From NCBI GenBank assembly GCA_026395965.1, contig JAPLXS010000012.1:115977-179976 (forward strand): a stretch of DNA of 64,000 nt, written 5' to 3'. Made by a program: the position numbers and the translations under genes. Shown piece after piece: positions 3,116 to 50,575 of the stretch. This DNA comes from Candidatus Nomurabacteria bacterium (GTDB taxonomy: Bacteria > Patescibacteriota > Minisyncoccia > Phycocordibacterales > UBA9973). The notes under the pieces are model-generated. The model saw nothing but the letters and a program-made list of their open reading frames with translations. It was not told the origin of the DNA and ran no database searches. Each line of letters begins with the position of its first letter. The first letter of the stretch is position 1.

Positions 3116-3120
3116 GTTAT

Positions 3121-3471
3121 TTAATCTTTTATTGTTAAACGCTTCATCATTAGAGGTCTAAGCTTGTTTGCTGGAAGCATTCCGTATACTGCTAATTCGT
3201 ACAAACCTTGCCATCCCTTTTTGTCTATAATCTTGGCATTTGTTTTTGTTTTGAATCCGCCTGGATGTCCTGAGTATGTTTCGTGTAGTGTTTCTTTCAT
3301 GCGGCGTTCTGACATTTTTGTCTTACCTGCATTTGTGATTGTGACGATAACATCAGCAACCTTGTTTGGAACATAGTCTATAGAAGTTTTACCCATAAGG
3401 ATTTTTGCGGCTGCACTTGAAACAAATCCTAGTGTCTTACCTTCTGCATCAATTGTATGTCTAGTAGTCAT
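3121..3471 (-). CDS. rplM: 50S ribosomal protein L13
   Basis: MTTRHTIDAEGKTLG...VYGMLPANKLRPLMMKRL matches L13. Confidence 0.9.
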   Translation of the reverse strand: MTTRHTIDAEGKTLGFVSSAAAKILMGKTSIDYVPNKVADVIVTITNAGKTKMSERRMKETLHETYSGHPGGFKTKTNAKIIDKKGWQGLYELAVYGMLPANKLRPLMMKRLTIKD

Positions 3472-30700: not shown

Positions 30701-31462
30701 TTATATTAAATCTTGATTAGCAATCAAACCTTCAAGTATCTCTAACTCTTCTTTTGTATTTGGCTGAAAACCTTCTATTATATTTTTAACTGAAACAGCT
30801 TCTATGTGCTTACCTTCTTGACTTGCTATTTTTACTAAATCAGTTAAATAATATTCACATTGAGCATTCTCATTTTTTAATTTATCTATATTTTTCCAAA
30901 GCCATACAGAGTCAAATGCGTATAAAGCAGGATTCACTTCATGTATTTCTTTTTCTTTATCATTTGCATCTTTGTATTCTACTATACCTGATACCTTACC
31001 ATTTTTATCTCGCAATACTCTGCCAAAATTTATTAGCCCAGCTCGCCAATCCTTAAAATCGGGAAGAACAACAGTCCCTAGGGTAATAATTGCATTTGTA
31101 TTTTTATGTGTATTTATAATATCTTGAATTGTATCCTTTGATATCAAAGGTTGATCAGTAGATAATATAACAATTATTTTATGGTCTGGATGAGTAGAAT
31201 CTTTAGCACAAAGAACAGCATGTCCTGTTCCAAGTTGATCCTCTTGATTAGCATAGTTATGACCATGTCCCAATACATCAAAAATACGCTGTTTCTTATG
31301 ACCTACAACTATAACTGGATCTATCTCTAAATTTAAATGAGATACTGTATCTAATATATGCTTTAAAAAAGGCTTACCCGCAAGCATAGCAAGTGCTTTA
31401 GGATCATCTGATTCCATTCTTTTACCTTTACCTGCTGCTAATATAATTATTTGTGTATTCAT
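30701..31462 (-). CDS. Sugar-1-phosphate nucleotidyltransferase, GlmU N-terminal-domain-like (no LbH acetyltransferase domain)
   Basis: [32 protein letters not shown] matches the GlmU/RmlA G-x-G-x-R-M NTP-transferase signature; 253 aa. Confidence 0.75.
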
Positions 31463-31639
31463 AGAAAAATTGAGATAAAATTTTAATTAAAAAGATGGAG
31501 AATTCATACAGAACCGCAATTAAGCAGGTAGAACCCTGTGTATGATTTGAATACTACCTATTCGGGTACTTTTCAATTTGCAAAGCAAATAATGAAAAGT
31601 CTTTCAAATCCCTCACGCATGTGAAGCAGTTCACATGCT

Positions 31640-31679
31640 ACCGCGCACAAAAATTGCATTAGCAATTTTTGTGCGCGGT
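31640..31679. terminator. Perfect 18-bp hairpin that includes the tRNA-Val 3' acceptor strand plus its trailer
   Basis: ACCGCGCACAAAAATTGC-atta-GCAATTTTTGTGCGCGGT. Confidence 0.5.
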
Positions 31680-31744
31680 GAGGGATTTGAACCCCCGACA
31701 TCGTCAACGTCAATGACGCGCTCTACCAACTGAGCTAACCGCGC
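31672..31744 (-). tRNA. tRNA-Val (anticodon GAC)
   Basis: Reverse complement folds as a cloverleaf: GCGCGGT-TA-GCTC-AGTTGGTA-GAGC-G-CGTCA-TTGACGT-TGACG-ATGTC-GGGGG-TTCAAAT-CCCTC-ACCGCGC-A, 73 nt, no encoded CCA. Confidence 0.85.
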
Positions 31745-31842
31745 AAGCTTTTATATTTTAAATGAAATTATAATTTTAAACTACACTACAATGCTTTTTC
31801 CACCAAGACAGCATAACCGCGCAAACTTATTCTTTACAAAGC

Positions 31843-31929
31843 GGAGGGTACAGGATTTGAACCTGTGATCCTCTTACGAGGATTACGCTTTTCGAAAGCG
31901 GTGCATTCAACCTCTCTGCCAACCCTCCG
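31843..31929 (-). tRNA. tRNA-Ser (anticodon CGA), type II with long variable arm
   Basis: Reverse complement GGAGGGT-T-G-GCA-GAGAGGTTGAA-TGC-A-CCGCT-TTCGAAA-AGCGT-AATCCTCGTAAGAGGATC-ACAGG-TTCAAAT-CCTGT-ACCCTCC-G, 87 nt, G73 discriminator. Confidence 0.8.
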
Positions 31930-32118
31930 CTTTATACAGGATGAAAGCAGTATATTCAATTTATCAATCATTCAATCTTAAATATACTTTCTTAAGTATA
32001 CAAGAAATTTATTATATACTCAACACATTTAGACGTTGGACATCTAGAAAAATAAAATATAAACCCTTATAAAATAAGGATAATTATCTCTTAGACGTCC
32101 AACGTCTAAGAGATAATA

Positions 32119-33627
32119 CTATTTTACAAGACTCTCCCCTGTCATATCTATTGGTTTTTTTAGTCCAAATATTTGCAAAATAGTAGGTGCAACATCCGCC
32201 AGTATTCCAGTATCTTTTAGTTTAATATTCATATCTGTACAAATAAATGGAACTGGATCACTAGTATGAGAAGTATGCCTAAGTCCTGAAATCGGGTCGA
32301 TATTTATTTCAGCATTTCCATGATCAGCTGTTATACAAGCTACTCCTCCATTTATAGTAAGTGCTTCTAGGATTCTACCCAATTCTTTATCTATTTCCTC
32401 TACTGCAGTTATAATAGCTGGCACTTCTGCGGTGTGTCCCACCATATCTGCATTTGCAAAGTTTACCAAAATAAAATCAGTACCGTTTTTAATTTGTTCT
32501 ATAACTTTATCTGCTATTTGTTCTGCTCCCATTTTGGGAGCCAGATCATAGGTTTTTATGTCTTTGCGGCTAGGTATTAGAATATGCTCTTCTCCTTTAT
32601 AGCAACCTTCGGCACCACCATTAAAGAAATATGTAACATGTGCAAATTTCTCTGTTTCTGCGATGTGTGCTTGTTTTAGACCAGATTCAGAAATCTCTTT
32701 TGCTAAAGTTGTATTTATTTTGATTGGTGGATAAGCTACCAATGTAGGGTATTCCTCACCATAATTTGTCATTGTAGCAAAACAAATATTTTCTTCTTTT
32801 TGTTTTTCAATTATTTTTGAGGTAAGTTGTCTTGACCTATCTGCTCTATAGTTAAAAAAGAATACTCCGTCATTTTTTTGTAAAAAATATTTTTCACCAT
32901 TTTCCCCTTCACAAACAAATGGAACTAGGTATTCATCTACTTTTCCTTCCTTATATAAATTTTCTACATATAAAGATGGTTCGATATTACAAATATCTCC
33001 CTTCCCTTCAAAAATAACTTCTTCTGCTTTTTTTAATCTATCCCAATTTTTGTCTCTATCCATAGCATAGAAACGACCAGAAACTGAGGCAATATTTCCC
33101 ACTCCTATTTCTTTTATTTTATCTTCTAATTCTTTTATATATAAAGCAGCGCTCTGTGGTGGAGTATCTCTTCCATCAGTAAATACATGTACTGCTACTT
33201 TTAAAACATTCTTTTCTTTTGCTGCCTTTAAAAAAGCAAATAAATGTGACATGTGACTATGAACACCTCCATCAGAAAGAAGCCCCATCACATGCAGAGT
33301 AGAGTTATTATTTTTTACATGGTCAAAAAGAGTTTCAAAAACAGTATTTGAATAAAATGAACCATCGTTGATATCTTTATAAATCCTGACTAAATCTTGG
33401 TCTAAAACTTTGCCTGCTCCCATGGCCATATGACCTACTTCACTATTTCCCATTTGACCATCAGGAAGCCCTACAGCAAGCCCAGAAGCGCTCAAAAGAG
33501 CATGTGGGTAAGTATTCCACAGATTGTCATATATCGGCTTTTTTGCCTGAAAAATCGCATTATCTTTATGTTCTTCTCTGTATCCCCAACCATCTAGAAC
33601 AATAAGAGCTACTTGTTTTTTATTCAT
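32119..33627 (-). CDS. gpmI: 2,3-bisphosphoglycerate-independent phosphoglycerate mutase
   Basis: 502 aa. N-terminal LIVLDGWGY and the conserved metal-binding His/Asp of the iPGM family (ADHGNAE). Confidence 0.9.
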   Translation of the reverse strand: MNKKQVALIVLDGWGYREEHKDNAIFQAKKPIYDNLWNTYPHALLSASGLAVGLPDGQMGNSEVGHMAMGAGKVLDQDLVRIYKDINDGSFYSNTVFETLFDHVKNNNSTLHVMGLLSDGGVHSHMSHLFAFLKAAKEKNVLKVAVHVFTDGRDTPPQSAALYIKELEDKIKEIGVGNIASVSGRFYAMDRDKNWDRLKKAEEVIFEGKGDICNIEPSLYVENLYKEGKVDEYLVPFVCEGENGEKYFLQKNDGVFFFNYRADRSRQLTSKIIEKQKEENICFATMTNYGEEYPTLVAYPPIKINTTLAKEISESGLKQAHIAETEKFAHVTYFFNGGAEGCYKGEEHILIPSRKDIKTYDLAPKMGAEQIADKVIEQIKNGTDFILVNFANADMVGHTAEVPAIITAVEEIDKELGRILEALTINGGVACITADHGNAEINIDPISGLRHTSHTSDPVPFICTDMNIKLKDTGILADVAPTILQIFGLKKPIDMTGESLVK

Positions 33628-33777
33628 TATGTTTAATGCAGGTCAATGCTAGTTTAAAACTAACTTAAATCTACTATTGTTAAATTAATCATATATTCCA
33701 TATTATTTACAATAACTTATGTATATAATCGGATTTGTAAGACTATTATAACAAATTATATGATTTTTGTATTTAGA

Positions 33778-34719
33778 TTATTTTTTAAAAAATAATTCTC
33801 TTAAATCGTTTATTTCTTTTTTTAATTGGGATATTTTTAAAACATTGCTTGACAAGTTTTTATTAATTTTTTCTAATTCTTTTGTTTTTGAGATAAGTTG
33901 TTCTTGTATATTGATTTTTGATTCATTTGTTTTATTTAATATGTCCTCAAACATATTTTTTAATTCCCCAATTTCATTATCACTAGAAGGAAAGATTTCC
34001 AAATTTTTTTCATTTTGCAACATATTCGATAAAGACAATATAGAAGTAGAGATTACTTTATTTAAACGTAACCCAACCAAAGTTGCCAATAATCCAGACA
34101 ATAAAAAGATAATCAGATATATTGCAAATATGCTTTTTTCTTTACTTACAATATCTGATGCTTTTATATCTATACCCAACACACCCTCTATTTTACCGTC
34201 TTTATCATAAAATGGAGCATATCCAGAATACCATGTACCCCATTTATCAGTTGTAAAATTATCTTCTGTTACTGTATTTTTAATAGTTGAAAAATTATTT
34301 TTGAGAAATGGACTAGCGTCATCGTAAACATCACCAAGATGAGAAACATTTATTGGGCTTTCTTCTGCATCCACAATAAAAGATACATCTTTATTTTCAT
34401 TCTCACGCATTGTATATATATAATAAATATCTTTAGAACTATTGCGTATTTTTTGGAGAGTTGTCTTTATATCTTTATATGCTTGAGTACTTTCATCGGC
34501 TCTTGTTTTTAGTGAGCTATGTTTTTCTGCATCAACTTGCAATACTGCCATACTTACCATAGTAGATAAATGCATTTTTAGATCTTCTCTGCTAACTTTT
34601 AGAAAATATGAATAAGAAAAAAAAGAAATTAGACCCATTAATATTATAGAAGATAGTATTAAAGTAATTGTAATTTTTGTTCTAATCTTAAAGTATTTTT
34701 TAAGTTTTAAATTTTCCAT
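33778..34719 (-). CDS. Membrane sensor-like protein: TM, Cache-like extracytoplasmic domain, TM, HAMP-like segment and coiled coil, with no output domain
   Basis: 313 aa. The extracytoplasmic GVLGIDI motif is typical of Cache domains. After TM2 comes the HAMP-like DNEIGELKNMFEDILNK. The C-terminus is a heptad coiled coil. Confidence 0.45.
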   Translation of the reverse strand: MENLKLKKYFKIRTKITITLILSSIILMGLISFFSYSYFLKVSREDLKMHLSTMVSMAVLQVDAEKHSSLKTRADESTQAYKDIKTTLQKIRNSSKDIYYIYTMRENENKDVSFIVDAEESPINVSHLGDVYDDASPFLKNNFSTIKNTVTEDNFTTDKWGTWYSGYAPFYDKDGKIEGVLGIDIKASDIVSKEKSIFAIYLIIFLLSGLLATLVGLRLNKVISTSILSLSNMLQNEKNLEIFPSSDNEIGELKNMFEDILNKTNESKINIQEQLISKTKELEKINKNLSSNVLKISQLKKEINDLRELFFKK

Positions 34720-34892
34720 ATTTATTTATTAGATATATTATATATCTAAATTTAGCGAATAAAATAAAAAGTAATAACATTAATATTATACACCCGTCAA
34801 ATTTATAAATAAAGCATAATATACACCACAATATGGTAAAAAATAAAAGCTGATTTGCTACGCAAATCAGCTTTTTGATTTAAGTAATTTAT

Positions 34893-35153
34893 TTAAATTA
34901 CCTTTTTTTGTTTTTTGATATAATTTAAAAATAATATTATTGTTAAAATAAAAAATATAACTACAATAATTTTATTATCTTTAAATATATTCAATAAAGG
35001 AGCAAGGATTTCAATTTTTTCTTTTGAAGTTATATAAACAAGAATATACAAGAAGCATACACCTGCCATACTACCCAAAATAAAAATATTAACAAATACG
35101 AATAAAAGTTTTGTAATACCTACAAAACAGTTATATATTTTTATTAAATTCAT
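34893..35153 (-). CDS. Small hydrophobic protein (3 predicted TM helices)
   Basis: 86-aa ORF composed almost entirely of hydrophobic segments. Confidence 0.3.
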   Translation of the reverse strand: MNLIKIYNCFVGITKLLFVFVNIFILGSMAGVCFLYILVYITSKEKIEILAPLLNIFKDNKIIVVIFFILTIILFLNYIKKQKKVI

Positions 35154-35333
35154 AATATCAAGTTTTATTAGTTAATTTGAGCAATAGATACCTTGTATCT
35201 GTTATTCAAATTAACCAATATTCCATAATACACTTTTTATTATATTATCACACATATAGTAATGTGTCAAAATAATTTAATCAAAAAAATAATATAAAAA
35301 TTAAATCCCCTACTTATGTAAGGGATTTTTTGT

Positions 35334-35996
35334 TTAACAAATTTTAATTTTTTCGTTTTTATTAAAAAATGAAAAAATAAATTTATCTTTAATTTCTTCT
35401 TTTTGCTTCGAAGTAATAACACCAGGAAAGATATTGCAATATTGGTCTAATATGAACTTATTATAACAATAAAATTTAATTGAATGATCACTTACCATAT
35501 TTGTTATACGCATAAGCAAATCCAATCTTTGATAAGTAGACATTGGAATATGCTTAAGTAAAGAGCAATAAAGATTACAAATTAAATTAGGTTGAAATAA
35601 CGATAAACCGCTCCAGATATATTTTGATTTTTTATTATAATCTAATAATGATTTATATATCCCTTCAATAAAAGGAATATAGTAATCGCAGGGCTTAGTC
35701 GAATTTTGCAAATGATAATCAAATATATCTGCAATATTACTATAAATACTAACATCATATACATGACCACTACTTTTATAATTTGAATCTTTCAAGCTAT
35801 TTTCGAGCAATTTTTCACCTCCAGCATATGATAATATCAACAATTCAATATGTTCTGGTTTCAGAGAGTCGCTATTTAAAATTGATTTTATTTTATTTTT
35901 ATTATTTTGAGATAGACCTACAAAAGGACTCTCAAAAAGAACGCATTTTTCTAACTCAACCATAGCTATCTCGTGGTTTTCTATTTTTTCTATCAT
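35334..35996 (-). CDS. Hypothetical protein
   Basis: 220-aa ORF followed by a terminator-like hairpin (aATCCCTacttatgtaAGGGATttttt at about 35303-35330). Confidence 0.45.
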   Translation of the reverse strand: MIEKIENHEIAMVELEKCVLFESPFVGLSQNNKNKIKSILNSDSLKPEHIELLILSYAGGEKLLENSLKDSNYKSSGHVYDVSIYSNIADIFDYHLQNSTKPCDYYIPFIEGIYKSLLDYNKKSKYIWSGLSLFQPNLICNLYCSLLKHIPMSTYQRLDLLMRITNMVSDHSIKFYCYNKFILDQYCNIFPGVITSKQKEEIKDKFIFSFFNKNEKIKIC

Positions 35997-36059
35997 TTTC
36001 TATATTTTTAAATTTTGATTTATATTACAAATAAAATAGAGTCATGTCAAATTATACAT

Positions 36060-36182
36060 AATATAGACAAGCTTTTCGATTCTCCTCACGGTTCGATTTA
36101 CTAATCGCCGGATGAGAAGCAAGCAGTTGCTTCTCATAGGGCCACAAAAGAAAAGAGCCCCACATTCGTGGGGCTCTTTTTC
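36060..36182 (+). ncRNA. Candidate small RNA: 43-nt conserved module, GCAG-loop hairpin and an intrinsic terminator
   Basis: Module 36072-36114 is identical to 38061-38103. Hairpin GAGAAGCA-agcagt-TGCTTCTC at 36114-36135. Terminator GAGCCCCACattcGTGGGGCTCttttt at 36155-36181. The element lies upstream of both flanking genes, so it is not their terminator. Confidence 0.4.
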
Positions 36183-36187
36183 TACGC

Positions 36188-36589
36188 GTGAGCCTAGTCG
36201 AGATGCGACCATGGAATTCATTATCGTGTAAGGCTTGTTTTAACTATTTGCTATTATATATTTACCCTTCTCGAGAGATAAAATTAATTAAAAGTATAAT
36301 TATATTGCTATATTGTTGTTACTTTTATATAATTATGAATATGGAAAAGTTTAAACCACAAATAAATAATAATATTGAAAATAAAGAATCGCCGGAAGAA
36401 AAACATTCAAAATGGAAAAAAGAAGCGAGGGTATTATTAGAAGGTATTGGATTTTCTACTGGTGTTATTGTGTCATTAAGTCTTATTGAAAGATATTTTG
36501 GAATTGATTTAACATCGAATGCAATAAATTTATCTGCTGTTATATCATCTATGACATATATGGGTATTAGACGCGAAAATTTGAAATAA
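36188..36589 (+). CDS. Hypothetical small membrane-associated protein
   Basis: 133-aa ORF. Its stop overlaps the next start (ATGA), suggesting a translationally coupled pair. Confidence 0.4.
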   Translation: MSLVEMRPWNSLSCKACFNYLLLYIYPSREIKLIKSIIILLYCCYFYIIMNMEKFKPQINNNIENKESPEEKHSKWKKEARVLLEGIGFSTGVIVSLSLIERYFGIDLTSNAINLSAVISSMTYMGIRRENLK

Positions 36590-36590
36590 A

Positions 36591-36881
36591 ATGATAAATA
36601 TAAATGAAATTAAAATAAAATTAAAAGAATTAGGTTTTAAAGATGAAAGTGTCGATACTATTATTTATGATGTCATTCAAGTTATTTTAGCTAAGTCGTT
36701 TGGATCATGTCTCTTGAAATTTCCGGAGAATGAGCAGTCTAAATTAAAGAAATTTTCAATAAATGAATTTGAAGAATATATAGAAAAGAATAAGGATAAA
36801 TTACCAGAATTTTCAGGTGAAGAATTTAAAAATATTTATAATGAAACTTGGAAAAACTATTTTGATACTATCTCAAAATAG
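36591..36881 (+). CDS. Hypothetical protein
   Basis: 96-aa ORF coupled to the upstream gene. Confidence 0.4.
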   Translation: MININEIKIKLKELGFKDESVDTIIYDVIQVILAKSFGSCLLKFPENEQSKLKKFSINEFEEYIEKNKDKLPEFSGEEFKNIYNETWKNYFDTISK

Positions 36882-36935
36882 TTTTAAATCGTCCAAATTT
36901 TAGCCTTATCGAGAGCTCGAATTAGCTTTCGACTT

Positions 36936-36952
36936 GGTGACCCTACCGGGAA
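36936..36952. repeat. 17-nt direct repeat identical to the 3' end of tRNA-Glu (candidate distal att site)
   Basis: ggtgaccctaccgggaa = 50502-50518. Confidence 0.7.
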
Positions 36953-37092
36953 CGGCATTAGCCTTATCTCCCTCGACTAAAACTTTTTATCAAAAAAGTT
37001 TTGTCTGGGCACCAGCTCATCTATTTTTCTTACTAGAAAAATATGATTCCGCTGTTCGATTCCCGAACACAAGCAAAGCAGTTTGCTTGCTC

Positions 37093-37146
37093 AGGGTCAC
37101 AAATTAAAAAATCTGCCTTACAGCAGATTTTTTAATTTGTGACCCT
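37093..37146. repeat. 24-bp perfect palindrome (bidirectional terminator-like) with an A6/T6-flanked stem
   Basis: AGGGTCACAAATTAAAAAATCTGC-cttaca-GCAGATTTTTTAATTTGTGACCCT. A variant copy at 38325-38371 has a different inner stem. Confidence 0.8.
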
Positions 37147-37346
37147 AGGGAGTTCAAATTGGAATCTTATTGTATATCAGATAAAGGGTTTTAAGGATAT
37201 TCTCGCCTGTTTATTAGATAAAACCTGAGTTTGTATCAATACAATAATAGATATTTTGGAAAATAAAAAAATCTGATCAATTTGATCAGATTTTAAAATA
37301 CTCTTTTTTCACGAACCAAGATAACATATTGTAGTACCAATAGGAT

Positions 37347-37895
37347 TTAATATAGATTTAACAATATATATATATTAGGAATTATAGTTTTAGAAAAACC
37401 ATTTATTTCTAAGAGAGTTTTTAAGGACTTCTTAGGAGTGAAAGATATATCATTTACTTTGACAATATCTATTCTTTCTTTCCAATCTACTTCATGAATC
37501 CAATCATAAAAACAATTCCTACGATAATGTTTATAAGCGAAATAACTTCTAGTTTCTTTTTGTTCATCTTCCTTGTATGGATTAAGTAGGACAGTTTCAA
37601 GTAAATACATAACATTTGGTATGTATTCATCAAGTTTTTTAAAGGTTCCTTGATACTCAAGATTAACTTGGTTATCATTTCCATATTCCTTATTTAAAGT
37701 TTCCATCATAATCTTTATTAAACTTTTACTATCTAAATAGGATTGATTCTCTTCCAAATCAATACCAAGAAAAATAAAATAATAAGATAAGGGTCCTTCT
37801 GTGGATTGGAGATGTAATAATTTTATTTCTGAAGGATCAAAAAATAAACCTAAAGACTTCGTAAGTTTAGTTGTAATATTTTCTTTTATTTTCAT
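37347..37895 (-). CDS. Hypothetical protein
   Basis: 182-aa ORF between the two tRNA-Glu-derived repeats. Confidence 0.4.
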   Translation of the reverse strand: MKIKENITTKLTKSLGLFFDPSEIKLLHLQSTEGPLSYYFIFLGIDLEENQSYLDSKSLIKIMMETLNKEYGNDNQVNLEYQGTFKKLDEYIPNVMYLLETVLLNPYKEDEQKETRSYFAYKHYRRNCFYDWIHEVDWKERIDIVKVNDISFTPKKSLKTLLEINGFSKTIIPNIYILLNLY

Positions 37896-38019
37896 CTTCT
37901 TATATTTAAATTGGTTATCACAAATCTCCTAAAAGACCTCTGATAACCAATCAAATATAAATTTGAAAGAACAGTAACATTAAGCAAACAATAACATTAT
38001 TATATATACTCGTCAATCT

Positions 38020-38034
38020 GTGACCCTACCGGGA
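38020..38034. repeat. 15-nt direct repeat matching the tRNA-Glu 3' end (candidate internal or older att site)
   Basis: gtgaccctaccggga. Confidence 0.65.
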
Positions 38035-38546
38035 TATCTTTCTCTACGAGAACAGTATACCTTTTCGATTCTCCTCACGGTTCGATTTACTAATCGCCGG
38101 ATGCGAGACCGGGACCGTGAGTACACTTATCGAACCTTACAGGTTCAGTACACCTTTTCCGTTCGTGAGTACACTCATAATGAAGAACTTTTTAACTCCC
38201 GGGAACCATGATTACATGTTCGGTCGCTCATAATTTTCTGCTGAAAATTTGTGCGACCCCGCCTCAGCTCGTCAGCTTCCGGCTTTCGATTTTTTAAAAT
38301 ATAAATACTTTTATATTTTAAAATCACAAATTAAAAAACCCGACCTTTCAGTCGGAGCTTTTTAATTTGTGAACGTTTAAGTAATAGAACCCATGCAATT
38401 TATTACCCCGCAAGGTTGTTTTTAATAATCTGACTTTTACATTTTAACCCTTCTCGTGCGACTATAAAAAGTGACAAAAGTGACACATCTTGAGATATAA
38501 TTATTACACCCAGGTGTCACTTTATTTAATATGATATAATGAAAAT

Positions 38547-39329
38547 ATGGAAAAATTACCTCAAAAAGTACATGAAAATAAAGATTTGGCGGTACATCTT
38601 GTAAGACATGCGAAAGCATTATATATACAAAATGAATGGGATGATATTGAAACAGCTAATGATATTGGTTCTCCAGAAGGGAAAAAACATGAATTAGACA
38701 AAATTAAAGCTACCGCAGAAAAGATAGCTTCTCTTGTTGAGAAAGGTGAAGAAATAGCTATTTGGGCTTCTCCTACAGGAAGGACTCTTGAAACAGCCAA
38801 GACTCTTAGTTTAGAGTTAAAGAATTTTGGGGTTGAAATAAGAGATGCCAAAAACTCTTATGGTGTAAATATTTTTGATCAAATAGGAGAAGTAAAAAAT
38901 TTTTCTCATGAAATATTTATGAAGTTTGTTAATGGTGGTACTATTAAAATGGAAGGAAATGATATTTTTTTAGAAAAGAAATATACTAATCCTGATAATT
39001 TACCACCTAATATTTATTTTCAACAAGATGCAATACATAATATAGATAAAAAATATAAGGATAGTTTACCCAATATACTACAGGAAGGTGTAGGTAATAT
39101 CGAAAAGTTTTATGAAGTAACAAATAGAATACAATCTGTTCTTAAAAGACTTAATAATTTACATGACAAAAAATACAGAATAATAATAGTAACACATGAT
39201 GCTCTTACTAGTTATTTAGTTAATGAATTTACTAGTGGAGATAAACAAGGAATAGATCCAGCCGAGATGGTTTCATTACTTAGAGAAAATGGCACACTAA
39301 AAGTGTGGTCAATAACTTCAAATGATTAA
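38547..39329 (+). CDS. Histidine phosphatase family (PGAM/SixA-like) protein
   Basis: N-terminal VHLVRHAK (RHG-type motif) and C-terminal IIIVTHDALTSYL (the second catalytic His region). Confidence 0.5.
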   Translation: MEKLPQKVHENKDLAVHLVRHAKALYIQNEWDDIETANDIGSPEGKKHELDKIKATAEKIASLVEKGEEIAIWASPTGRTLETAKTLSLELKNFGVEIRDAKNSYGVNIFDQIGEVKNFSHEIFMKFVNGGTIKMEGNDIFLEKKYTNPDNLPPNIYFQQDAIHNIDKKYKDSLPNILQEGVGNIEKFYEVTNRIQSVLKRLNNLHDKKYRIIIVTHDALTSYLVNEFTSGDKQGIDPAEMVSLLRENGTLKVWSITSND

Positions 39330-39733
39330 GCTCTGAATTCGTTTAGCCCATCAGAATATCCTTCAACAACTTTAATTAAAATAGGTTTTTCAAAGTATTC
39401 GATAAGACCATTGTCGAACGCCTTTTGTAATAACTCATTTGAATATAGAGGATCTAAGTTTTTAATACAGGAGAGAGTGATATGCGGGAATTTATTTTTT
39501 GATTTTATGTTTTCGACTAAAAGAGCATCTCCCTTTTCATCAGTAGCTCTACCTAAAATTTTAATATCGTATATTTCTCCAACATTTATATCATTTAAAT
39601 TATTTGGTTTAAACTCAATAGTAGAATGGTCACCAAAAACCGCTTCGTGTTTAGGTGAAAAAATTTCTAAGATTCTGTTAATATCAATTACAAATAACGC
39701 AGTGCACAAAATTTCTTTATTATCCATACTCAT
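39326..39733 (-). CDS. Hypothetical protein
   Basis: 135-aa ORF convergent with, and overlapping, the neighbouring gene end. Confidence 0.35.
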   Translation of the reverse strand: MSMDNKEILCTALFVIDINRILEIFSPKHEAVFGDHSTIEFKPNNLNDINVGEIYDIKILGRATDEKGDALLVENIKSKNKFPHITLSCIKNLDPLYSNELLQKAFDNGLIEYFEKPILIKVVEGYSDGLNEFRA

Positions 39734-39790
39734 TATTATACTATATATGTTTATTGCTTTAAAAGATATTTTGTTCTATTATCTTTATAT

Positions 39791-40342
39791 ATGATATTAA
39801 ATTCACATACAATAATTTCACCTTATACTAATGAATGGAAGGATAAATTTAGCACTGAAAAAGACTTAATTCTTGATTTATTAAAGGATAAAATTCTTGC
39901 AATAGAACATATTGGAAGTACTTCTATTCCAGGACTTTCAGCTAAACCTATCGCTGATATAGCTATCATAGTGAATGAATTTGAACCAGCAGATGTATTT
40001 AGTAAAGATTTAAGTAAGTTGGGGTATAAATACAATTCATCTAGTACTGAAAGACATTTTTATATAAAAGGAGATCCTGAGAGTTTTCATTTGTCTATTT
40101 CCTTTGCTAATAGAGGGGGTTTTTGGGTTAGACAAATACTTTTCAGAGACTACTTGAGAAATAATCCTGAATCAAAGAAAGAGTATGAGGAATTAAAAAA
40201 GAAACTTTTAACTGAAGACCCTACTGGGGTAAATTCTTATTTTGCAGGAAAAGATGCTTTTGTTAAAAAGATATTAACTTTAGCAAATTGGAAAGAAAAT
40301 CAATTGTATTCAGATTACATGAAAGATAAAAAGTTAAATTAG
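39791..40342 (+). CDS. GrpB-family (UPF0157) nucleotidyltransferase-fold protein
   Basis: IEHIGSTSIPGLSAKPIADIAIIV is the GrpB signature. Confidence 0.7.
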   Translation: MILNSHTIISPYTNEWKDKFSTEKDLILDLLKDKILAIEHIGSTSIPGLSAKPIADIAIIVNEFEPADVFSKDLSKLGYKYNSSSTERHFYIKGDPESFHLSISFANRGGFWVRQILFRDYLRNNPESKKEYEELKKKLLTEDPTGVNSYFAGKDAFVKKILTLANWKENQLYSDYMKDKKLN

Positions 40343-41409
40343 TTCAGTTTAATTGTTTTATATTGTATAAATGTATCTTCTGGTTTAGATTGTTTATATA
40401 TAAAAATCTCTTTAACTTCCATTTTTGTATTTTTTATTTTAAGGAGTTCACTTTCGATATCTTTTTTTATTATATCTGAGTAGAAACCTTTTTTAAATTG
40501 GATTAATGTAGTATGTGGTATGTATTGTGAACCTTCAAAATATCTTGATTTTAACTCAGGACTACAATTTAGCTTATTGATTAATTTATTATGCATATCA
40601 ATTAAAATTTTTGAATCTGATTCTAGATATAAAACTGAATTGTTAAATACGCCAATATTTTTAAATGAAAGTCTAAAAGATTTATAATTTTTAATTATCT
40701 CTTCAAAATTTGCAATCCATAATTCATTGGGTAATAACCCCCCAGGTGCTTTTATCGTAATATGAGGTTCAGCAAGTAATAAAACTGAGTCCAGAGAGTA
40801 TATCTTATGAATATTTAATACTAAATCTTTAACTTGTCCCAATATTGGGATCGCGATGAAATATTTTTCCTGTATAATTTGATCTTCTGAAAAGTCTAAT
40901 ATTTTTTTAACAAATTCTGTTTTTCCTGAATTATAAACTTCACCTAGAGAGAGGTCCACGAATTCTTTTTCTGGTGTAATTTTTAAATTATTTTCTTTTA
41001 AATTTTGATATTCTAAAATATGCTTCGGGTTATTAATTAAATAATCACGAAAAAGAATCTGTCTTCTCCAGAATGAAAATTTTGGAGAAGACACAGAAAG
41101 ATGATATTCTACAGGGTCACCTTTTCTACAAAAAATTCTTTCAGCTGATGACATTTTTGGATAATATACATATCCTAATTCCTGTATAAGATTAATAATA
41201 GGATCAATGTTGTCTATCGAGTTTACAAGAACGGCTATATCTATAATAGGCTTGGCTGAGAGCCCAGGGATGGAAGTACTTCCAATATGCTCAATATTTA
41301 GAACATCATATTTATTCTCAAAAGTTTTTGTTATTTTTTCTTTTTCTATTTCAAACTTGGTTTTCCAAAATTCTTGATATTTTGTGAAAAATTGATGATT
41401 ATTTTCCAT
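40339..41409 (-). CDS. GrpB domain fused to a 2H phosphoesterase (LigT-like) domain
   Basis: N-terminal IEHIGSTSIPGLSAKPIIDIAVLV (GrpB). C-terminal half has two H-x-T-x motifs (HITI and HTTL) about 85 aa apart. Confidence 0.6.
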   Translation of the reverse strand: MENNHQFFTKYQEFWKTKFEIEKEKITKTFENKYDVLNIEHIGSTSIPGLSAKPIIDIAVLVNSIDNIDPIINLIQELGYVYYPKMSSAERIFCRKGDPVEYHLSVSSPKFSFWRRQILFRDYLINNPKHILEYQNLKENNLKITPEKEFVDLSLGEVYNSGKTEFVKKILDFSEDQIIQEKYFIAIPILGQVKDLVLNIHKIYSLDSVLLLAEPHITIKAPGGLLPNELWIANFEEIIKNYKSFRLSFKNIGVFNNSVLYLESDSKILIDMHNKLINKLNCSPELKSRYFEGSQYIPHTTLIQFKKGFYSDIIKKDIESELLKIKNTKMEVKEIFIYKQSKPEDTFIQYKTIKLN

Positions 41410-41412
41410 ATA

Positions 41413-42204
41413 TTATTCGTTTTTCTTATTTTTAAATGATAATAAATTACTGTCCTCAGAATATATAAAGGTTATGTTTGGATATTTTTTTAATGAATAT
41501 TCATAAACCGCTGTATTCTTATAATAAGAGTTAGGATACATTATAACTTTTTTACCCAACATTGTACTGGCAATAGCTATGTGCAATCTGTCTGTTCTTA
41601 TTTCTTCATATTTAGATATTTCTTCTAAAAAATCTTTAATTGGTTTTTTGCAATATCCATTTTTTGAAATATCAAAATTATTTTTAGGTTTTATTTTTTT
41701 TATAGATTCGCAATCTTCTCTAAAAGCATTCAAAATACCAGTCCCATTTTTTTTGTATGAATCAAAATTATTATAAAATGCACAATCGTGCCATATATAA
41801 ACTTGGCAATTTTTGGCATATTCTTTGACGAAATCATAACTAATCATATCTCTGCAAAATATCGTGACATTATTATTTAGGGTTTCTAGTAATGATTTTT
41901 GTTTTTCTCCGTTAATTGTATGTGGTAGTATTATAACTTCTTTGTATTGTTGATTTTTTTTAATCAAAAAATCTCTAACATCAAAATAATAATCTACAAA
42001 ATTACCACCTCCATCTATAAAAAGAACATTATTATGTACACCATCTTCGGTGTTGACATATTTTAAATTTATAGATAGTTCCTCCATTAATTTTAATGTT
42101 CCATGCCATATTAAAGAATCACCATAATTACCATTGAATCTATAAAAATCAACTTCTGTATTTGAGAATCTTTTTAAATATTTTTTTAAATCCATTTCTT
42201 TCAT
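41413..42204 (-). CDS. Polysaccharide pyruvyl transferase-like protein
   Basis: N-terminal GNYGDSLI and C-terminal TDRLHIAIAS resemble the pyruvyl-transferase family. Confidence 0.45.
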   Translation of the reverse strand: MKEMDLKKYLKRFSNTEVDFYRFNGNYGDSLIWHGTLKLMEELSINLKYVNTEDGVHNNVLFIDGGGNFVDYYFDVRDFLIKKNQQYKEVIILPHTINGEKQKSLLETLNNNVTIFCRDMISYDFVKEYAKNCQVYIWHDCAFYNNFDSYKKNGTGILNAFREDCESIKKIKPKNNFDISKNGYCKKPIKDFLEEISKYEEIRTDRLHIAIASTMLGKKVIMYPNSYYKNTAVYEYSLKKYPNITFIYSEDSNLLSFKNKKNE

Positions 42205-42213
42205 AAAATAATT

Positions 42214-43893
42214 TTATATATTGTTTTTAATAACCTCAAAGACAAAATTAGGTATAATTTTGTCAAAACAAAATTCTTCACAGCAATCAATTTCTTCTTG
42301 TCTCTTTGTGTGGTTACATAATATATGCCTATTTTTGTTGTATATAGATATGGTTTCTTTATTTAAATTTAGATATTTAGGATGAGTTGCCCCAAATATC
42401 ATAAAAGACTTCTTTTTAAAACTTTGAGCTATAATGGCAGGACCAGAATCATTACCTATAAAAAACTCACAATACTTTATTAAAGATAACATTTCTTTAA
42501 AACTATTGCTGTCATCTAGAAAAATTACCTTGACTCTAAGTTCTTCTATTATTAGAAATGAAAGATCTTTATAATTTTTAATACCCCAATTTCTTTTATT
42601 TTCTTGCCACGAGCTAGTGTTCGGAGCTATTAAAACATACTTTTCTTTCATTAATACATCATGTTTATCATTAAGGAAAGGTAAATTATTAATATTTTCA
42701 TCTATTCCTGCTGATTCAGCAAATCCCTGGATATAAGTTTTGTCATTTCGTGAATTTTCATAATTTAATTTTATTTTTATATCTACACCATCAAAATCAT
42801 TTATGTCTGAATAATTTATAATTCCATCATAAGCGGGAAGTAAGTTATTGATGTTATTTATATTTGTGGCTAAGTAAACTTTATTAACGTATTTATGTAA
42901 ATATCTAGCAATGGGTTCTGTCATTATTACATCACCAAGATTTCCTTTTCTTATTAGGCAGATGGAATTAATTTCCCTGTTTTTTATTTTATTAATAAAA
43001 TATGTTTTATACCAAAAGTTTAAAGTATTATCAGTTATTATTTTATTTTTTTCTATAACTGTTCCCCAAAATGTTCTATGCTCAGAAAACCACATTTCAT
43101 TTACTTTTTCTAAATTATCTTTAAATTCGATCACGTAATTTTTAATGGTTTGTATCCTCTCAAGCCAAGGAGAATTATCATTTGAACTAGAGTCTCTTTC
43201 ATATTTTGCTAGTTTTTTCCATTTTTCATAAATCATTTTTGCTGTATTCCTGAATTCATAATGTAGTAACTTGGCTTCGTTGTAAGGAATTATAAAAGGA
43301 TTACTTGTATATGTACCAAAAAAATCAGGATTATTTCTAGACTTCACATAATGTCCACCAACCACAATTTCGATATTCTTATGATTCTTGATTATAGCTT
43401 TTCTGAAATGGCCAAACTCTTGCCATGGTTTTTCTGGCCATGGTAAATAATAACAATTTGTATCTATTGGAGTAGCTTGTGCACGACTGCATTCAAATAA
43501 TGCGTTTGCCCATCCGATAGTTGCATACACGATACCAGCTTTTTCTAGTCGATCAATAAAAGCATGAATTGTCTTATCTTTCATACTTACAAATTCATCT
43601 GCATCCAGCATAAAAAACCAATCCACTTTAAAATTTTTATTTGCAAATGAAAGTAGTTTATTCGCAATTTTTGCATGGTCAAAAACAGGGTCTTCTTCTT
43701 TGATTACAATTATTCTTTTGTCCGCATTGTAGCTTTCCAGGATATCGTTTGTTTTATCTGTTGAACAATGGTTAGCTATAAAAATATAATCAAAACCAAT
43801 ACTAAGGTGATATGATATATTCAAGTCAATAAAACTCTCCTCATTTCTAACTACCATCAAAATAGCAATTTTATTATCTGTTTTGTTCTCCAT
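42214..43893 (-). CDS. Two-domain glycosyltransferase: GT2-like N-terminus plus GT9 (heptosyltransferase-like) C-terminus
   Basis: N-terminal MVVRNEESFIDLNISYH (GT2 family). C-terminal CLIRKGNLGDVIMTEPIARYL and FIGNDSGPAIIAQSF (GT9 signature). Confidence 0.55.
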   Translation of the reverse strand: MENKTDNKIAILMVVRNEESFIDLNISYHLSIGFDYIFIANHCSTDKTNDILESYNADKRIIVIKEEDPVFDHAKIANKLLSFANKNFKVDWFFMLDADEFVSMKDKTIHAFIDRLEKAGIVYATIGWANALFECSRAQATPIDTNCYYLPWPEKPWQEFGHFRKAIIKNHKNIEIVVGGHYVKSRNNPDFFGTYTSNPFIIPYNEAKLLHYEFRNTAKMIYEKWKKLAKYERDSSSNDNSPWLERIQTIKNYVIEFKDNLEKVNEMWFSEHRTFWGTVIEKNKIITDNTLNFWYKTYFINKIKNREINSICLIRKGNLGDVIMTEPIARYLHKYVNKVYLATNINNINNLLPAYDGIINYSDINDFDGVDIKIKLNYENSRNDKTYIQGFAESAGIDENINNLPFLNDKHDVLMKEKYVLIAPNTSSWQENKRNWGIKNYKDLSFLIIEELRVKVIFLDDSNSFKEMLSLIKYCEFFIGNDSGPAIIAQSFKKKSFMIFGATHPKYLNLNKETISIYNKNRHILCNHTKRQEEIDCCEEFCFDKIIPNFVFEVIKNNI

Positions 43894-44632
43894 AAATAAT
43901 TTTATTTAAGTCCAATTTAAAACGATAAAAAGCTGGATGTTCTGGCCATGTTGCATGAAAAAGATCTATGTTATCTAAAGATTTAATTTCTAAATTTTGG
44001 TGATCACTTATTAAAGCATATTTTTCTTTCGGTAAAATTAATAGACTCCCATTCCTTAGGTATGGAGTAAGAGCAATAGCTAAAGATCCTTGTTCGTCGT
44101 GGTGGGTTTGGTTCTTGTATGAAATATTTTTCAGCCACCACTCAAATTCTCGAGCAAGATCTGGTGTTATGTCATAATTTTTCTTTTGAATAAATAATCC
44201 TGCATTTATAAAAGGTGTATCGGGTGAAGCTTTAACTTTCATTGCTCCATGTTGCCAACTTTCACCTTCAAATTCATCTAGAATTGCGAAATGTAAACTA
44301 TCATCGTTTAAAAAATTTTCAATTTCTTTTGGGTATTTTACAAGAAATACATCTGAATCTATATAAAATTCTGTCTCATCAATGTTTATTCTAGATTTGG
44401 GACACCATTTCAACCAAGTTGCTTTTGATTTAACGTCAAACATGCTTTTATTTTCTGAAAAAAAAGATTTAACTTGAGCTATGTTTTTTAAGCTTACTGG
44501 TATTGATTCAACATTGTCGGTGTATAAAATATATTTATGAGAATCACCGTACCATCTTTTAAAAGAAGAAATGCTGTATTCTAACATTTCATAATTTTTA
44601 TTATCTCCCCATATTGACCATCTAAATATCAT
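43874..44632 (-). CDS. Hypothetical nucleotide-sugar transferase-like protein (DxD motif)
   Basis: YIDSDVFL DxD-like motif; 252 aa; overlaps the neighbouring genes as in an operon. Confidence 0.35.
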   Translation of the reverse strand: MIFRWSIWGDNKNYEMLEYSISSFKRWYGDSHKYILYTDNVESIPVSLKNIAQVKSFFSENKSMFDVKSKATWLKWCPKSRINIDETEFYIDSDVFLVKYPKEIENFLNDDSLHFAILDEFEGESWQHGAMKVKASPDTPFINAGLFIQKKNYDITPDLAREFEWWLKNISYKNQTHHDEQGSLAIALTPYLRNGSLLILPKEKYALISDHQNLEIKSLDNIDLFHATWPEHPAFYRFKLDLNKIIYGEQNR

Positions 44633-45903: not shown

Positions 45904-46082
45904 ATGCTATTTATAATAACACATAATTTATGACTTAGCAATTGTTAATTAAATAATAACACTTCGACCTTGTTATTAAAAGTTTATTGTATCGCAGACG
46001 CTTGAAATCATAGAGGAAGTTACCAACATGTTGCCAACAATTAATGCCTTAGCAAAAGATTAAATTTCTGGCATCATTAGGT

Positions 46083-50409: not shown

Positions 50410-50500
50410 AATAAATAAATATTAGCACTAATAGCTATTAGATGATAGTTATAATAACAAAAAACATATTTTCATATATGCTTCTCGTGCTAGCACGTGA

Positions 50501-50575
50501 TGGTGACCCTACCGGGAATCGAACCCGGATTACCGGCTTGAAAAGCCGATGTCCTAACCGTTAGACGATAAGGCC
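50501..50575 (-). tRNA. tRNA-Glu (anticodon TTC), CCA encoded
   Basis: Reverse complement GGCCTTA-TC-GTCT-AACGGTTAG-GACA-TCGGC-TTTTCAA-GCCGG-TAAT-CCGGG-TTCGATT-CCCGG-TAGGGTC-A-CCA. Confidence 0.85.

Follow-up and report, generated by a model that had tools for sequence, protein, structure and literature searches.

A family of structured noncoding elements at the 3′ flanks of tRNA and tmRNA genes in Patescibacteria, recognized behind a tRNA-Val gene of Candidatus Nomurabacteria

The tRNA-Val locus and its inverted repeat

The stretch of DNA analyzed here (referred to below as the window) comprises 64,000 nucleotides of Candidatus Nomurabacteria contig JAPLXS010000012.1, has a G+C content of 30.6%, and encodes on its minus strand a tRNA-Val(GAC) gene that is immediately followed by a compact element made up of a terminator-like palindrome (T0), two antisense arms that flank a conserved hairpin (H1), and further hairpins (Table 1). 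Such elements form a widespread noncoding structured family at the immediate 3′ flanks of tRNA and transfer-messenger RNA (tmRNA) genes in the candidate phyla radiation (CPR)/Patescibacteria. The tRNA-Val gene itself has no encoded CCA and ends with ...TTCAAAT-CCCTC-ACCGCGC-A73-C74. The genes flanking the locus code for housekeeping proteins, namely, FtsZ, a pyridine nucleotide-disulphide (FAD) oxidoreductase, an NTP-transferase, and iPGM, which rules out an integrase adjoining the tRNA genes of this locus.

The initial annotation of this locus, made from the sequence alone, described an inverted duplication of the tRNA-Val 3′ half together with an inserted hairpin, and both the description and the coordinates proved to be correct. 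A repeat search returned two inverted-repeat pairs, each 100% complementary, one of 18 nt with a spacing of 4 nt (31640-31657/31662-31679) and one of 14 nt (31603-31616/31678-31691). Their right arms cover the T-loop (31685-31691), the 3′ strand of the T-stem (31680-31684), the 3′ strand of the acceptor stem (31673-31679), A73 and C74 (31672 and 31671), and the trailer. Segments 31603-31614 and 31640-31657 taken together reproduce the tRNA-Val 3′ end perfectly in inverted orientation, interrupted by a 22-nt hairpin; the gap between the two left arms measures exactly 25 nt, and the hairpin inside it has a perfect 9-bp stem. A perfect inverted repeat of 30 nt at this position is far beyond chance. 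The extended stem of ∼30 bp with a side hairpin, also proposed initially, is the minimum free energy (MFE) structure of the read-through tRNA-Val precursor (−108.4 kcal/mol, z = −9.6).

The originally reported coordinates are thus correct as far as they go, but the element is larger: it includes T0 and two further conserved hairpins and reaches down to ∼31531. Further, the 25-nt segment is not an insertion into a duplication, as had been assumed, but the most conserved module of the family, A-GC-N5-AA-CUGC-UU-N5-GC-GU, which always lies between the complements of tRNA nucleotides 66 and 65. This copy, designated copy A, scores 62.1 bits (E = 4e-13) against R1, a covariance model of the H1 core. 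Its T0 is terminator-like but weak: it contains just 2 G-C pairs, and the terminator scan did not flag it. Because the closing copy of the tRNA end at the far side of copy A is decayed or foreign, the arms of this copy can pair only with the 3′ half of tRNA-Val itself. For either strand of 31531-31670, ARAGORN and Rfam called no tRNA or RNA family, even with an E-value limit of 10; the sole call was the minus-strand tRNA-Val.

Two more hairpins with the same loop had been noted initially. Both exist and are longer than was stated, occupying positions 36112-36137 (11 bp) and 37070-37089 (8 bp). Together with the one at tRNA-Val, they are the only hairpins in the window with a GCAG/CTGC loop and a stem of at least 6 bp, and the loop reads GCAG on one and the same strand in every case. 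The two additional hairpins belong to element copies B and C (Table 1).

A direct repeat of 15 nt with 1 mismatch (31736-31750/31814-31828) contains the leader and the first 9 nt of tRNA-Val (AAGYTTGCGCGGTTA). The resulting stub of a tRNA-Val 5′ end between the tRNA-Ser and tRNA-Val genes suggests that the tRNA gene was once rearranged or replaced. Between iPGM and tRNA-Ser, there is also a perfect 16-bp palindrome, ATTATCTCTTAGACGT-CCA-ACGTCTAAGAGATAAT (32083-32117), flagged as terminator-like on both strands, with a related sequence, TAGACGTTGGACATCTAG, 50 nt away (a partial copy at ∼32030-32047).

Table 1. Coordinates of tRNA genes, element copies, and putative island genes in the window
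Feature	Position	Strand	Description or evidence
tRNA-Val(GAC)	31671/2-31744	minus	ARAGORN; Rfam RF00005, 68.9 bits
tRNA-Ser(CGA)	31841-31928		ARAGORN/Rfam
Copy A, whole	31531-31670	minus	T0, arm 1, H1, arm 2, H2, H3, decayed closing copy
Copy A, sense 1	31671-31691	minus	T-loop, T-stem 3′ strand, acceptor 3′ strand, A73, C74, matched by the antisense arms; sequence, inverted repeats
Copy A, T0	31649-31670	minus	Palindrome of A-run, short hairpin, and T-run, AAAAATTGC-TAAT-GCAATTTTT; sequence
Copy A, arm 1	31640-31648	minus	GTGCGCGGT, Watson-Crick complement of acceptor 3′ strand, A73, and C74; inverted repeats
Copy A, H1 module	31615-31639	minus	A + GCATGTGAA-CUGC-UUCACATGC + GU: linker A, 22-nt hairpin (31617-31638; loop CUGC on the minus strand, GCAG on the plus strand), linker GU
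Copy A, arm 2	31603-31614	minus	GAGGGATTTGAA, complement of T-stem 3′ strand and entire T-loop; inverted repeats
Copy A, H2	31568-31602	minus	AGACTTTTCA...TGAAAAGT; identical to H2 of relative L006
Copy A, H3	31549-31567	minus	CCCGAATAG-GTA-GTATTC, GUA-triloop type; comparison with relatives
Copy A, closing copy	31531-31551	minus	TTCAAATCATACACAGGGTTC, begins TTCAAATCATACACAGGG; decayed or foreign, does not match the arms
Copy B, degenerate relative	36040-36183	minus	R1, only 19.6 bits, E = 0.06
Copy B, T0	36146-36183	minus
Copy B, segment after T0	36138-36145	minus	GTGGCCCT
Copy B, H1	36112-36137	minus	11 bp, CUGC loop; GGAGAATCGAAAAGCTT further on; fragment of arm 2/H2
Copy C, complete tRNA-Glu-type element	36935-37146	minus	R1, 66.8 bits; orthologous to the element directly behind tRNA-Glu in L008
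Copy C, partial sense	37139-37146	minus	AGGGTCAC
Copy C, T0	37101-37138	minus
Copy C, arm 1	37092-37100	minus
Copy C, H1 module	37067-37091	minus
Copy C, arm 2	37055-37066	minus
Copy C, interior hairpins	36953-37054	minus
Copy C, closing copy	36935-36952	minus	TTCCCGGTAGGGTCAC + CA
tRNA-Glu(TTC)	50501-50575	minus	Encoded CCA, no element directly behind; ARAGORN
Large serine recombinase	46083-47399		Within the 13.4-kb segment
Caspase-helicase fusion	47392-50409		1005 aa; Peptidase_C14 + DEAD/Helicase_C, defense-like

Related elements in relatives and metagenomes

A homologue search with the NTP-transferase of the window identified its relatives as Candidatus Paceibacteria/Nomurabacteria (CPR), so that a Bacteroidetes origin, first suspected because of the low G+C content, was rejected; an exact-protein lookup for sister strains returned no record. 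The gene order tRNA-Ser, tRNA-Val, NTP-transferase is mostly kept in these relatives, and the layout seen in the window (T0, arm 1, H1, arm 2, H2, H3) recurs behind tRNA-Val in L001, L005, L006, L007, and L012. There is no element in L002, L004, L008, L009, L013, and L027, where tRNA-Val ends 0 to 7 nt before the ATG of the NTP-transferase gene. Such spacing implies cotranscription, with a leaderless or nearly leaderless mRNA released by 3′ processing of the tRNA. The same layout, with arms that match tRNA-Glu, is found behind tRNA-Glu in L002, L007, L008, L016, L017, L022, and L027. In the relatives with a tRNA-Val element, the H1 stem differs from genome to genome but is always perfectly paired, its loop being CTGC, CTTC, or CTTT, and arm 2 tracks the T-stem allele of the respective species.

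A scan of a metagenome collection with the pattern GTG-N6-AGC-N5-AACTGCTT-N5-GYGT returned at least 120 matching stretches on metagenome contigs without taxonomic assignment, many of them from groundwater sites. Among the matches listed and the other sequences analyzed, the N5/N5 stem is perfectly complementary in 110 of 130 pattern instances, the chance expectation for such a stem being ∼1 in 1024, so the observation at tRNA-Val is not a product of chance. The listed matches include 33 distinct H1 stems in 116 unique copies. A canonical tRNA gene lies upstream on the same strand, ending 3 to 66 nt before the GTG, in 64 of the 102 listed instances with enough upstream sequence. These tRNAs represent at least 20 anticodon classes (Tyr, Glu, Lys, Arg, Leu, Gly, Phe, Val, Ile, Asp, Met, Ser, and Gln). 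Where no such tRNA was recognized, the element is in many cases located behind the tRNA-like 3′ end of tmRNA, which ARAGORN confirmed in 6 of 9 loci checked, and in others behind another unit of the element. The loci span G+C contents from 27 to 54%. The R1 model found additional copies beyond the scan pattern, with AT-CTGC-AT variants at the closing positions of the loop and with CTTC or CTTT loops.

Read on the tRNA strand, the element follows ...A73-C74 in the order T0, arm 1, A + H1 + GU, arm 2, H2, H3 (sometimes also H4) and often ends with a second tRNA 3′ end. Arm 1 is the complement of C74, A73, and acceptor nucleotides 72 to 66; arm 2 is the complement of T-stem nucleotides 65 to 61 and T-loop nucleotides 60 to 54. 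Repeat units measure ∼110 to 250 nt (mostly 120 to 165), with T0 in addition. Across the family, T0 has a median length of 38 nt and a median ΔG of −16 kcal/mol and shows the A4...T4 arrangement in 50 of 61 cases; it looks like a bidirectional intrinsic terminator. Given that T0 is absent wherever the element is absent, it belongs to the element.

These counts bear on one explanation of the inverted repeat, a neutral local inverted duplication or a template-switch extension of the terminator palindrome that represents no family and has no function. The initial annotation had allowed for a neutral duplication in the case of an arrangement missing from relatives and without other copies; the relatives are in fact mixed, and other copies number in the hundreds. 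Quasi-palindromes are known to mutate by template switching, which may help to keep the arms complementary. Yet the conserved 25-nt module recurs at an identical junction in hundreds of independent copies, behind a variety of tRNAs, which refutes neutral duplication as the sole explanation and leaves it a negligible probability. Of the roles suggested initially, “small tRNA-derived repeat element” and “relic of integration” pointed in the right direction, as judged from the association of the family with tRNA/tmRNA 3′ ends, its presence/absence polymorphism, and the duplicated 3′ ends.

Several loci show further features. In L081, the tRNA that precedes an element copy was not called by ARAGORN because the gene is interrupted by a group I intron (Rfam RF00028, 82 bits; 843-1084, minus strand). 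The contigs of the two closest relatives end within an element array (L001, 1-310, and L006, 1-190), and the element repeats appear to break metagenome assemblies. A different insert is found behind tRNA-Val in L010, L017, L022, and L023 (also in L020 and L068). It consists of T0, GTGCGA (a partial complement of the acceptor end), and GCCGGAG...GGGGTCGC...GTGACCACA, whereas H1 and arm 2 are missing; this insert is similar to the “type c” interior of the family and is possibly a relative that lacks H1. Copy B of the window is most similar to a separate subfamily, which is represented by a 12-bp CUGC-loop hairpin, ATGAAAAGTAAA-CTGC-TTTACTTTTCAT-CCGG, upstream of tRNA-Ser in L003 (4095-4212), L005 (5432-5547), and L027 (3526-3641). 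In L003, this hairpin lies inside the apparent 5′ half of a second tRNA-Ser (GGAGGGTTGGCA/insert/GGTTGAATGCACCGCTT).

The family is apparently undescribed. Rfam 15 gave no relevant match for window positions 31000-38000 (E ≤ 10) or for 15 loci with complete units (E ≤ 0.1). The pattern scan of IMG/VR yielded 2 random matches, neither with the hairpin, so that a phage origin could be dismissed. A search for literature on such elements at tRNA ends found nothing relevant within the libraries searchable, and no description of a split antisense forming a tRNA-like junction was found.

Antisense arms

Comparison of the 9-nt and 12-nt arms with the 21 nt immediately upstream of T0 revealed 0, 1, and 2 mismatches in 29, 20, and 8 of 106 copies, respectively. 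The relationship is one of true antisense, because the arms remain Watson-Crick complementary even where the tRNA has a G·U pair or a mismatch. At 48 acceptor positions with non-Watson-Crick pairs (in 33 tRNAs), the base found in the element is complementary to the 3′ strand in 40 cases and equals that of the tRNA 5′ strand in 5; likewise, the G3·U70 pair of tmRNA is replaced in the element by A-U. This result excludes the possibility that the arm is a copy of the tRNA 5′ strand, i.e., that the element originated as a tRNA duplicate with an inserted cassette, which would have kept the G·U pairs of the tRNA. The complementarity extends into the T-loop: nucleotides 57 to 60 are complemented in 40 of 53 copies, compared to a mean of 11 and a maximum of 20 with shuffled partners.

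The arms and the strand of the tRNA 3′ end form a continuous helix equivalent to the acceptor and T stems. The position of H1 is constant, between the complement of nucleotide 66 and that of nucleotide 65. H1 thus emerges where the D-arm, the anticodon arm, and the variable region leave the acceptor/T stack, which makes this a tRNA-like three-way junction. In addition, H1 starts with A-G-C and ends with G-C-G, similarly to A9-G10-C11...G24-C25-G26 of the D-arm; this sequence resemblance may serve as a lead only.

Fold, covariation, and the structured strand

Complete units fold into P1 (9 bp), A, H1, GU, and P2 (5 to 12 bp), which together enclose H2 and H3, with z-scores from −4.9 to −9.4. 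In an alignment of 17 compact units, 97.4% of the cells are paired, compared to 71% in shuffles and 29 to 48% in slid controls; the covariation score is 0.713, compared to 0.203 in shuffles, and 20 of the 29 pairs show double changes. The pairing statistics of P1, P2, and H1 are partly biased by the way the sequences were selected. No such selection applied to H3 (a 5-bp stem with GUA as its triloop), in which all 5 pairs covary.

Three more elaborate views of these hairpins were tried and abandoned. A kissing interaction of the H1 CUGC loop with GCAG or GUAG in the loops of H2 and H3 was dropped, as the closing pair of H3 merely covaries (U-A or C-G) and the loop variants of H1 do not covary with H3. 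An anticodon-like loop (GUA) in H3 was rejected on the same observation on its closing pair. Finally, a hammerhead-like inner junction was discarded, since the junction sequences do not fit and there is no Rfam match.

The tRNA-sense strand folds more stably than its complement in 26 of 34 units, and it has 62 G·U pairs versus 3 A·C mismatches (10 versus 3 in the alignment). Both the energies and the excess of G·U pairs indicate that the selected structure is on the tRNA-sense strand, either as RNA or as single-stranded DNA. A plus-strand antisense transcript at the tRNA-Val locus, one of the initial suggestions, is therefore not favored: these comparisons point to the minus strand.

Second tRNA 3′ end

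A downstream copy of the tRNA end (the T-stem 3′ strand, the acceptor 3′ strand, and AC, with at most 2 mismatches in 14) was found in 33 of 106 copies, 112 to 251 nt past the start of arm 1. Many other copies keep just 5 to 9 nt of it. It rarely contains the T-loop. Among the tRNA-Val units, a direct copy of the tRNA 3′ end closes those of L001 and L006. CA, which completes a CCA end, comes after 7 of 31 downstream copies versus 4 of 67 upstream copies and, in the case of tRNA-Glu, after 5 of 11 versus 0 of 13. This pattern, together with the CCA-encoding tRNA-Glu that has no element directly behind it, would fit either insertion behind C74 or recombination within the tRNA 3′ end that displaced the older end.

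The closing copy is lost or mismatched in the majority of copies. The reliably present pairing partner of the arms is the tRNA's own 3′ end. One possible explanation, which takes up the initial suggestion of a processing or regulatory structure, is that the element is a cis-acting trailer. In read-through precursors, such a trailer would invade the acceptor and T arms to form a hairpin of 30 to 40 bp (T0, P1, and P2, with the H1 branch) that controls 3′-end formation, destroys or sequesters read-through precursors, or separates the tRNA from the mRNA. Consistent with this, that hairpin is the MFE structure of the window precursor, and matches of the arms to the adjacent tRNA are both closer and more frequent than those to the downstream copy. 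The arms also complement T-loop nucleotides 57 to 60, which the downstream copy usually lacks, and the interior remains structured after the closing copy has been lost. Moreover, the tRNA-Val genes of element-free relatives abut the next ATG, implying that tRNA and mRNA are cotranscribed. On the other hand, folding of the tRNA precedes transcription of the arms, most transcripts should end at T0 before reaching the arms, and the sequestration of an essential single-copy tRNA would be costly. Close relatives manage without the element, and a cis role leaves unexplained H2 and H3, the closing copy, the tandem arrays, and copies that have no tRNA, such as copies B and C of the window. On balance, we consider this explanation unlikely.

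Gain, loss, and exchange of the element

The distribution of the element among relatives is patchy, and copies within one genome are old and strongly divergent instead of nearly identical (tRNA-Val versus tRNA-Glu elements in L007; copies A and C in the window). L005 and L027 share all of the 103 nt upstream (a stretch that takes in tRNA nucleotides 1 to 48) and 86 of 87 nt downstream, but only L005 has the element. L027 carries the common tRNA-Val allele ACAGG-TTCGACT-CCTGT-ATCGCGC, which abuts the ATG. In L005, the allele GGGGG-TTCAAAT-CCCTC-ACCGCGC is followed by a 176-nt element and then by the old TCCTGTATCGCG. The CCCTC/TTCAAAT allele is confined to loci that bear the element (the window, L001, and L005), which suggests that the element travels with its own 3′ part of the tRNA. 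The 5′ strand of the T-stem differs between L005 and L027 as well; hence, the event looks like a recombinational replacement from an element-bearing donor, and the primary insertion junction cannot be reconstructed from this pair. Copy A and L006 offer another comparison. They share an identical H2 and a nearly identical H3 but differ in the tRNA end, T0, both arms, and the H1 stem, indicating that a “specificity block,” from T-loop nucleotide 57 to its complement, is exchanged as a unit. Tandem copies are present in L001 and L091; the unit lengths measured in two tandem arrays are 141 and 164 nt.

The recurrent neighbor families near the elements are housekeeping only (ParB, SmpB, RelA/SpoT, Clp, FtsH, and MurD). 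One candidate for how the elements might move is a single-stranded DNA mechanism like that of the IS200/IS605 family and the palindrome-associated transposable elements (PATEs). Under such a mechanism, DNA hairpins of the sense strand would be recognized by a transposase acting in trans, and the arms would guide it to the tRNA end, cleaved after C74, and to the closing copy. It predicts that insertion takes place immediately behind a tRNA end that matches and leaves no classical target duplication, and the left junction of the element does fall right after A73-C74. The CA after the downstream copy looks as if insertion had occurred between C74 and C75, a new copy landing behind a resident closing copy would yield the observed tandem arrays, and the structure is strand specific. 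GNA-type triloops, such as GUA in H3, are very stable in DNA too, and the pairing of a guide with the cleavage site beside a hairpin is reportedly established for IS608. Against this mechanism, no Y1/HUH transposase or other recombinase recurs near the elements, the guide would be of 21 nt instead of 4, and the closing copy is missing in most copies. Unlike transposon ends, T0 sequences are not conserved between copies, and G·T in DNA hairpins is less tolerated than G·U in RNA. Overall, such a mechanism appears quite improbable.

Copies B and C and a probable tRNA-Glu island

Copy C is preceded by ...CCCTAGGGTCAC only. It lies 13.4 kb downstream of, and in the same orientation as, the tRNA-Glu(TTC) gene, its presumed original partner. 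Copy B has no complete interior after H1. The segment that separates tRNA-Glu from copy C (37147-50500, ∼13.4 kb) has TAGGGTCAC at both boundaries. Besides the large serine recombinase and the caspase-helicase fusion (Table 1), it encodes two GrpB proteins, one of them fused to a 2′-5′ RNA-ligase-like domain, glycosyltransferases, and a small open reading frame (ORF) with a weak match to a tRNA-ligase CPD-like domain. This segment probably represents a genomic island that entered at the 3′ end of tRNA-Glu, and we infer that it was inserted between tRNA-Glu and the already resident copy C.

The island raises the question of whether the elements themselves are scars of integrase- or recombinase-borne islands (attL/attR remnants resembling a cis-mobilizable element [CIME]), in which the tRNA end and T0 derive from attP and the rest is decaying island DNA. 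The 3′ ends of tRNA and tmRNA genes are said to be classical sites of islands, with duplicated 3′ ends and tandem accretion, and in the window, the serine recombinase segment flanked by TAGGGTCAC lies between tRNA-Glu and copy C. However, decaying DNA would not retain covarying hairpins, a near-invariant CUGC loop, and conserved junction sequences across G+C contents of 27 to 54%, nor would it have any reason to contain an antisense to the att core that is split exactly at nucleotides 65/66. There is no integrase adjoining the elements and no element in IMG/VR, and the window island was apparently inserted between the tRNA and a resident element. An origin as island scars is therefore very unlikely.

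A conserved sequence of ∼50 nt, AAAxCCCTTATxTxxxxxA...GxTTCCAAT...TAGGGTCAC, is found in place of a tRNA upstream of several tRNA-Glu-type elements (window, 37147-37200, minus strand; L087, ∼1500-1560; L137, ∼3110-3170; L173; and L005, ∼2960-3000) and may be the distal att junction of tRNA-Glu islands. The area around copies B and C (33778-37895) also holds a run of ORFs without a Pfam match (313, 86, 220, and 182 aa), with two small ORFs (∼36336-36589 and ∼36591-36881) on the opposite strand between the two copies; the ORFs of this area may be accreted island remnants.

Comparison with known systems

The nearest kinds of known elements are tRNA-targeting integrative elements, small hairpin repeats, and tRNA-like processed RNAs, and each of them fails at least one defining feature that was tested. 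Islands and prophages at tRNA/tmRNA genes, as well as CIMEs, use the same 3′-end site, bring a replacement 3′ part of the tRNA while the older part is displaced (as proposed here for the element), accrete in tandem, and are present or absent in close strains. In contrast to these, the element has only ∼110 to 250 nt plus T0, contains no recombinase gene (the serine recombinase of the window sits in the separate 13-kb island), does not occur in viral contigs, and has conserved covarying hairpins and a split antisense to the att-like core.

Small repeats such as repetitive extragenic palindromes (REP/BIME), PATEs, and miniature inverted-repeat transposable elements (MITEs) are likewise short, noncoding, repeated, hairpin rich, strand specific, and intergenic, and in IS608 a guide beside a hairpin pairs with the flanking target, as the arms could. 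The target of the present element, however, is a 21-nt tRNA end varying by copy, with matched arms. Among the tests for the IS200/IS605 family, no TnpA (Y1 HUH), TnpB, or RAYT was found to recur within 4 kb, there is no fixed 4- to 5-nt target, and T0 is not conserved. The test for MITEs detected no terminal inverted repeats with a short target duplication; the inverted repeat of the element is between the flank and an internal segment.

With mascRNA, the tRNA-like RNAs of gammaherpesviruses, permuted tRNAs, and two-piece tmRNA, the element shares the stacking of acceptor-like and T-like helices and a side arm at the exit of the D domain, and its organization resembles the order “acceptor 3′ strand, loop, acceptor 5′ strand” of permuted tRNA and tmRNA precursors. 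Unlike those RNAs, it has no elbow of T-loop and D-loop, its P1 is 9 bp long and includes the discriminator, and the G3·U70 identity pair of tmRNA is made Watson-Crick. Neither ARAGORN nor Rfam called the element a tRNA or a tmRNA. The modeled fold is compatible with a tRNA-like RNA that is processed by RNase P and RNase Z.

The geometry of guide, hairpin, and guide, with a three-way junction on a contiguous target strand, is also that of the box H/ACA pocket and the loops of IS110 bridge RNA. The element differs from H/ACA RNAs in the lack of H and ACA boxes and of unpaired target nucleotides at the junction. To our knowledge, bacteria lack H/ACA proteins. Bridge RNA guides, for their part, read opposite strands and sit beside a DEDD recombinase; no ORF for a DEDD/RuvC-like recombinase (IS110/IS1111) was found by the elements or in the window island. 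No reverse transcriptase (RT) gene of the retron kind adjoins the elements, and the “UAGC” after P1 is merely a superficial likeness to retrons. Finally, T0 has the A-run, G+C hairpin, and T-run of a rho-independent terminator right after a tRNA but is only one module of the element, its stem running unbroken into 21 more base pairs with the tRNA body.

Proposed nature of the element

The explanation favored here, with about even confidence, is that of a nonautonomous structured element, mobile or spread by recombination, that repairs the tRNA with its own T-arm, acceptor strand, and terminator and whose three-way junction serves as a handle for machinery acting in trans. The element would insert and spread by recombination at tRNA 3′ ends. 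As it would supply its own T-arm, acceptor 3′ strand, and T0, the tRNA gene would stay functional, while the older 3′ end would be displaced downstream. The three-way junction could be recognized in trans by RNase P, RNase Z, or the CCA-adding enzyme on the sense RNA or, alternatively, by a recombinase or transposase on folded DNA; this recognition may serve processing, propagation, or both.

Several observations weigh against this proposal. T0 looks from its sequence like an efficient terminator, so that transcription of the sense strand would need read-through or another promoter. The closing copy is lost or mismatched in 62 of 106 copies, and the interior is equally structured whether that copy is intact, partial, or lost (median z of −2.7 in all classes, compared to −0.4 in the control), which indicates that a self-contained tRNA-like fold is not the sole selected state. 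Retargeting to a new tRNA demands a change in both arms and in the sense copy, which is left unexplained, and the complementarity of the arms could be maintained by palindrome homogenization through template switching, with the pairing itself being functionless. Instead of a primary insertion, homologous recombination that replaced one allele with another could account for the difference between L005 and L027. Clustering of 535 ORFs from the 4 kb flanking each side of 115 copies revealed no recurrent integrase, transposase, or RT. Lastly, the scan pattern required GTG, AGC, AACTGCTT, and GYGT (hence the discriminator A), which biases the metagenome sample, so the invariance of these motifs is partly imposed; the variants CTTC, CTTT, and AT-CTGC-AT show that the pattern is not invariant.

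A bolder explanation, which is possible but doubtful, regards arm-H1-arm as a programmable guide, in the form of RNA or folded single-stranded DNA, that pairs with the terminal 21 nt of a tRNA or tmRNA gene or transcript; an enzyme of the host or of a mobile element, acting in trans, would recognize the resulting three-way junction and insert or copy the element behind the matching tRNA. If this is true, the element would be a guide-bearing mobile element without any protein of its own, its circular or tandem form (with the closing copy joined to T0) would be a fully paired, rod-like unit of ∼140 to 170 nt, and the split guide of 9 + 12 nt around a hairpin would constitute a new targeting geometry.

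CPR/Patescibacteria account for a large share of bacterial diversity and have tiny genomes, and their biology at the RNA level is almost unstudied. The elements described here switch tRNA genes from CCA-encoding to CCA-less, put terminator-like sequences ahead of downstream genes, and, as in the window, mark hot spots of island integration. The family would represent an abundant structured RNA of a new kind that is linked to the biology of tRNAs or else a new type of very small mobile element whose target is defined by base pairing.

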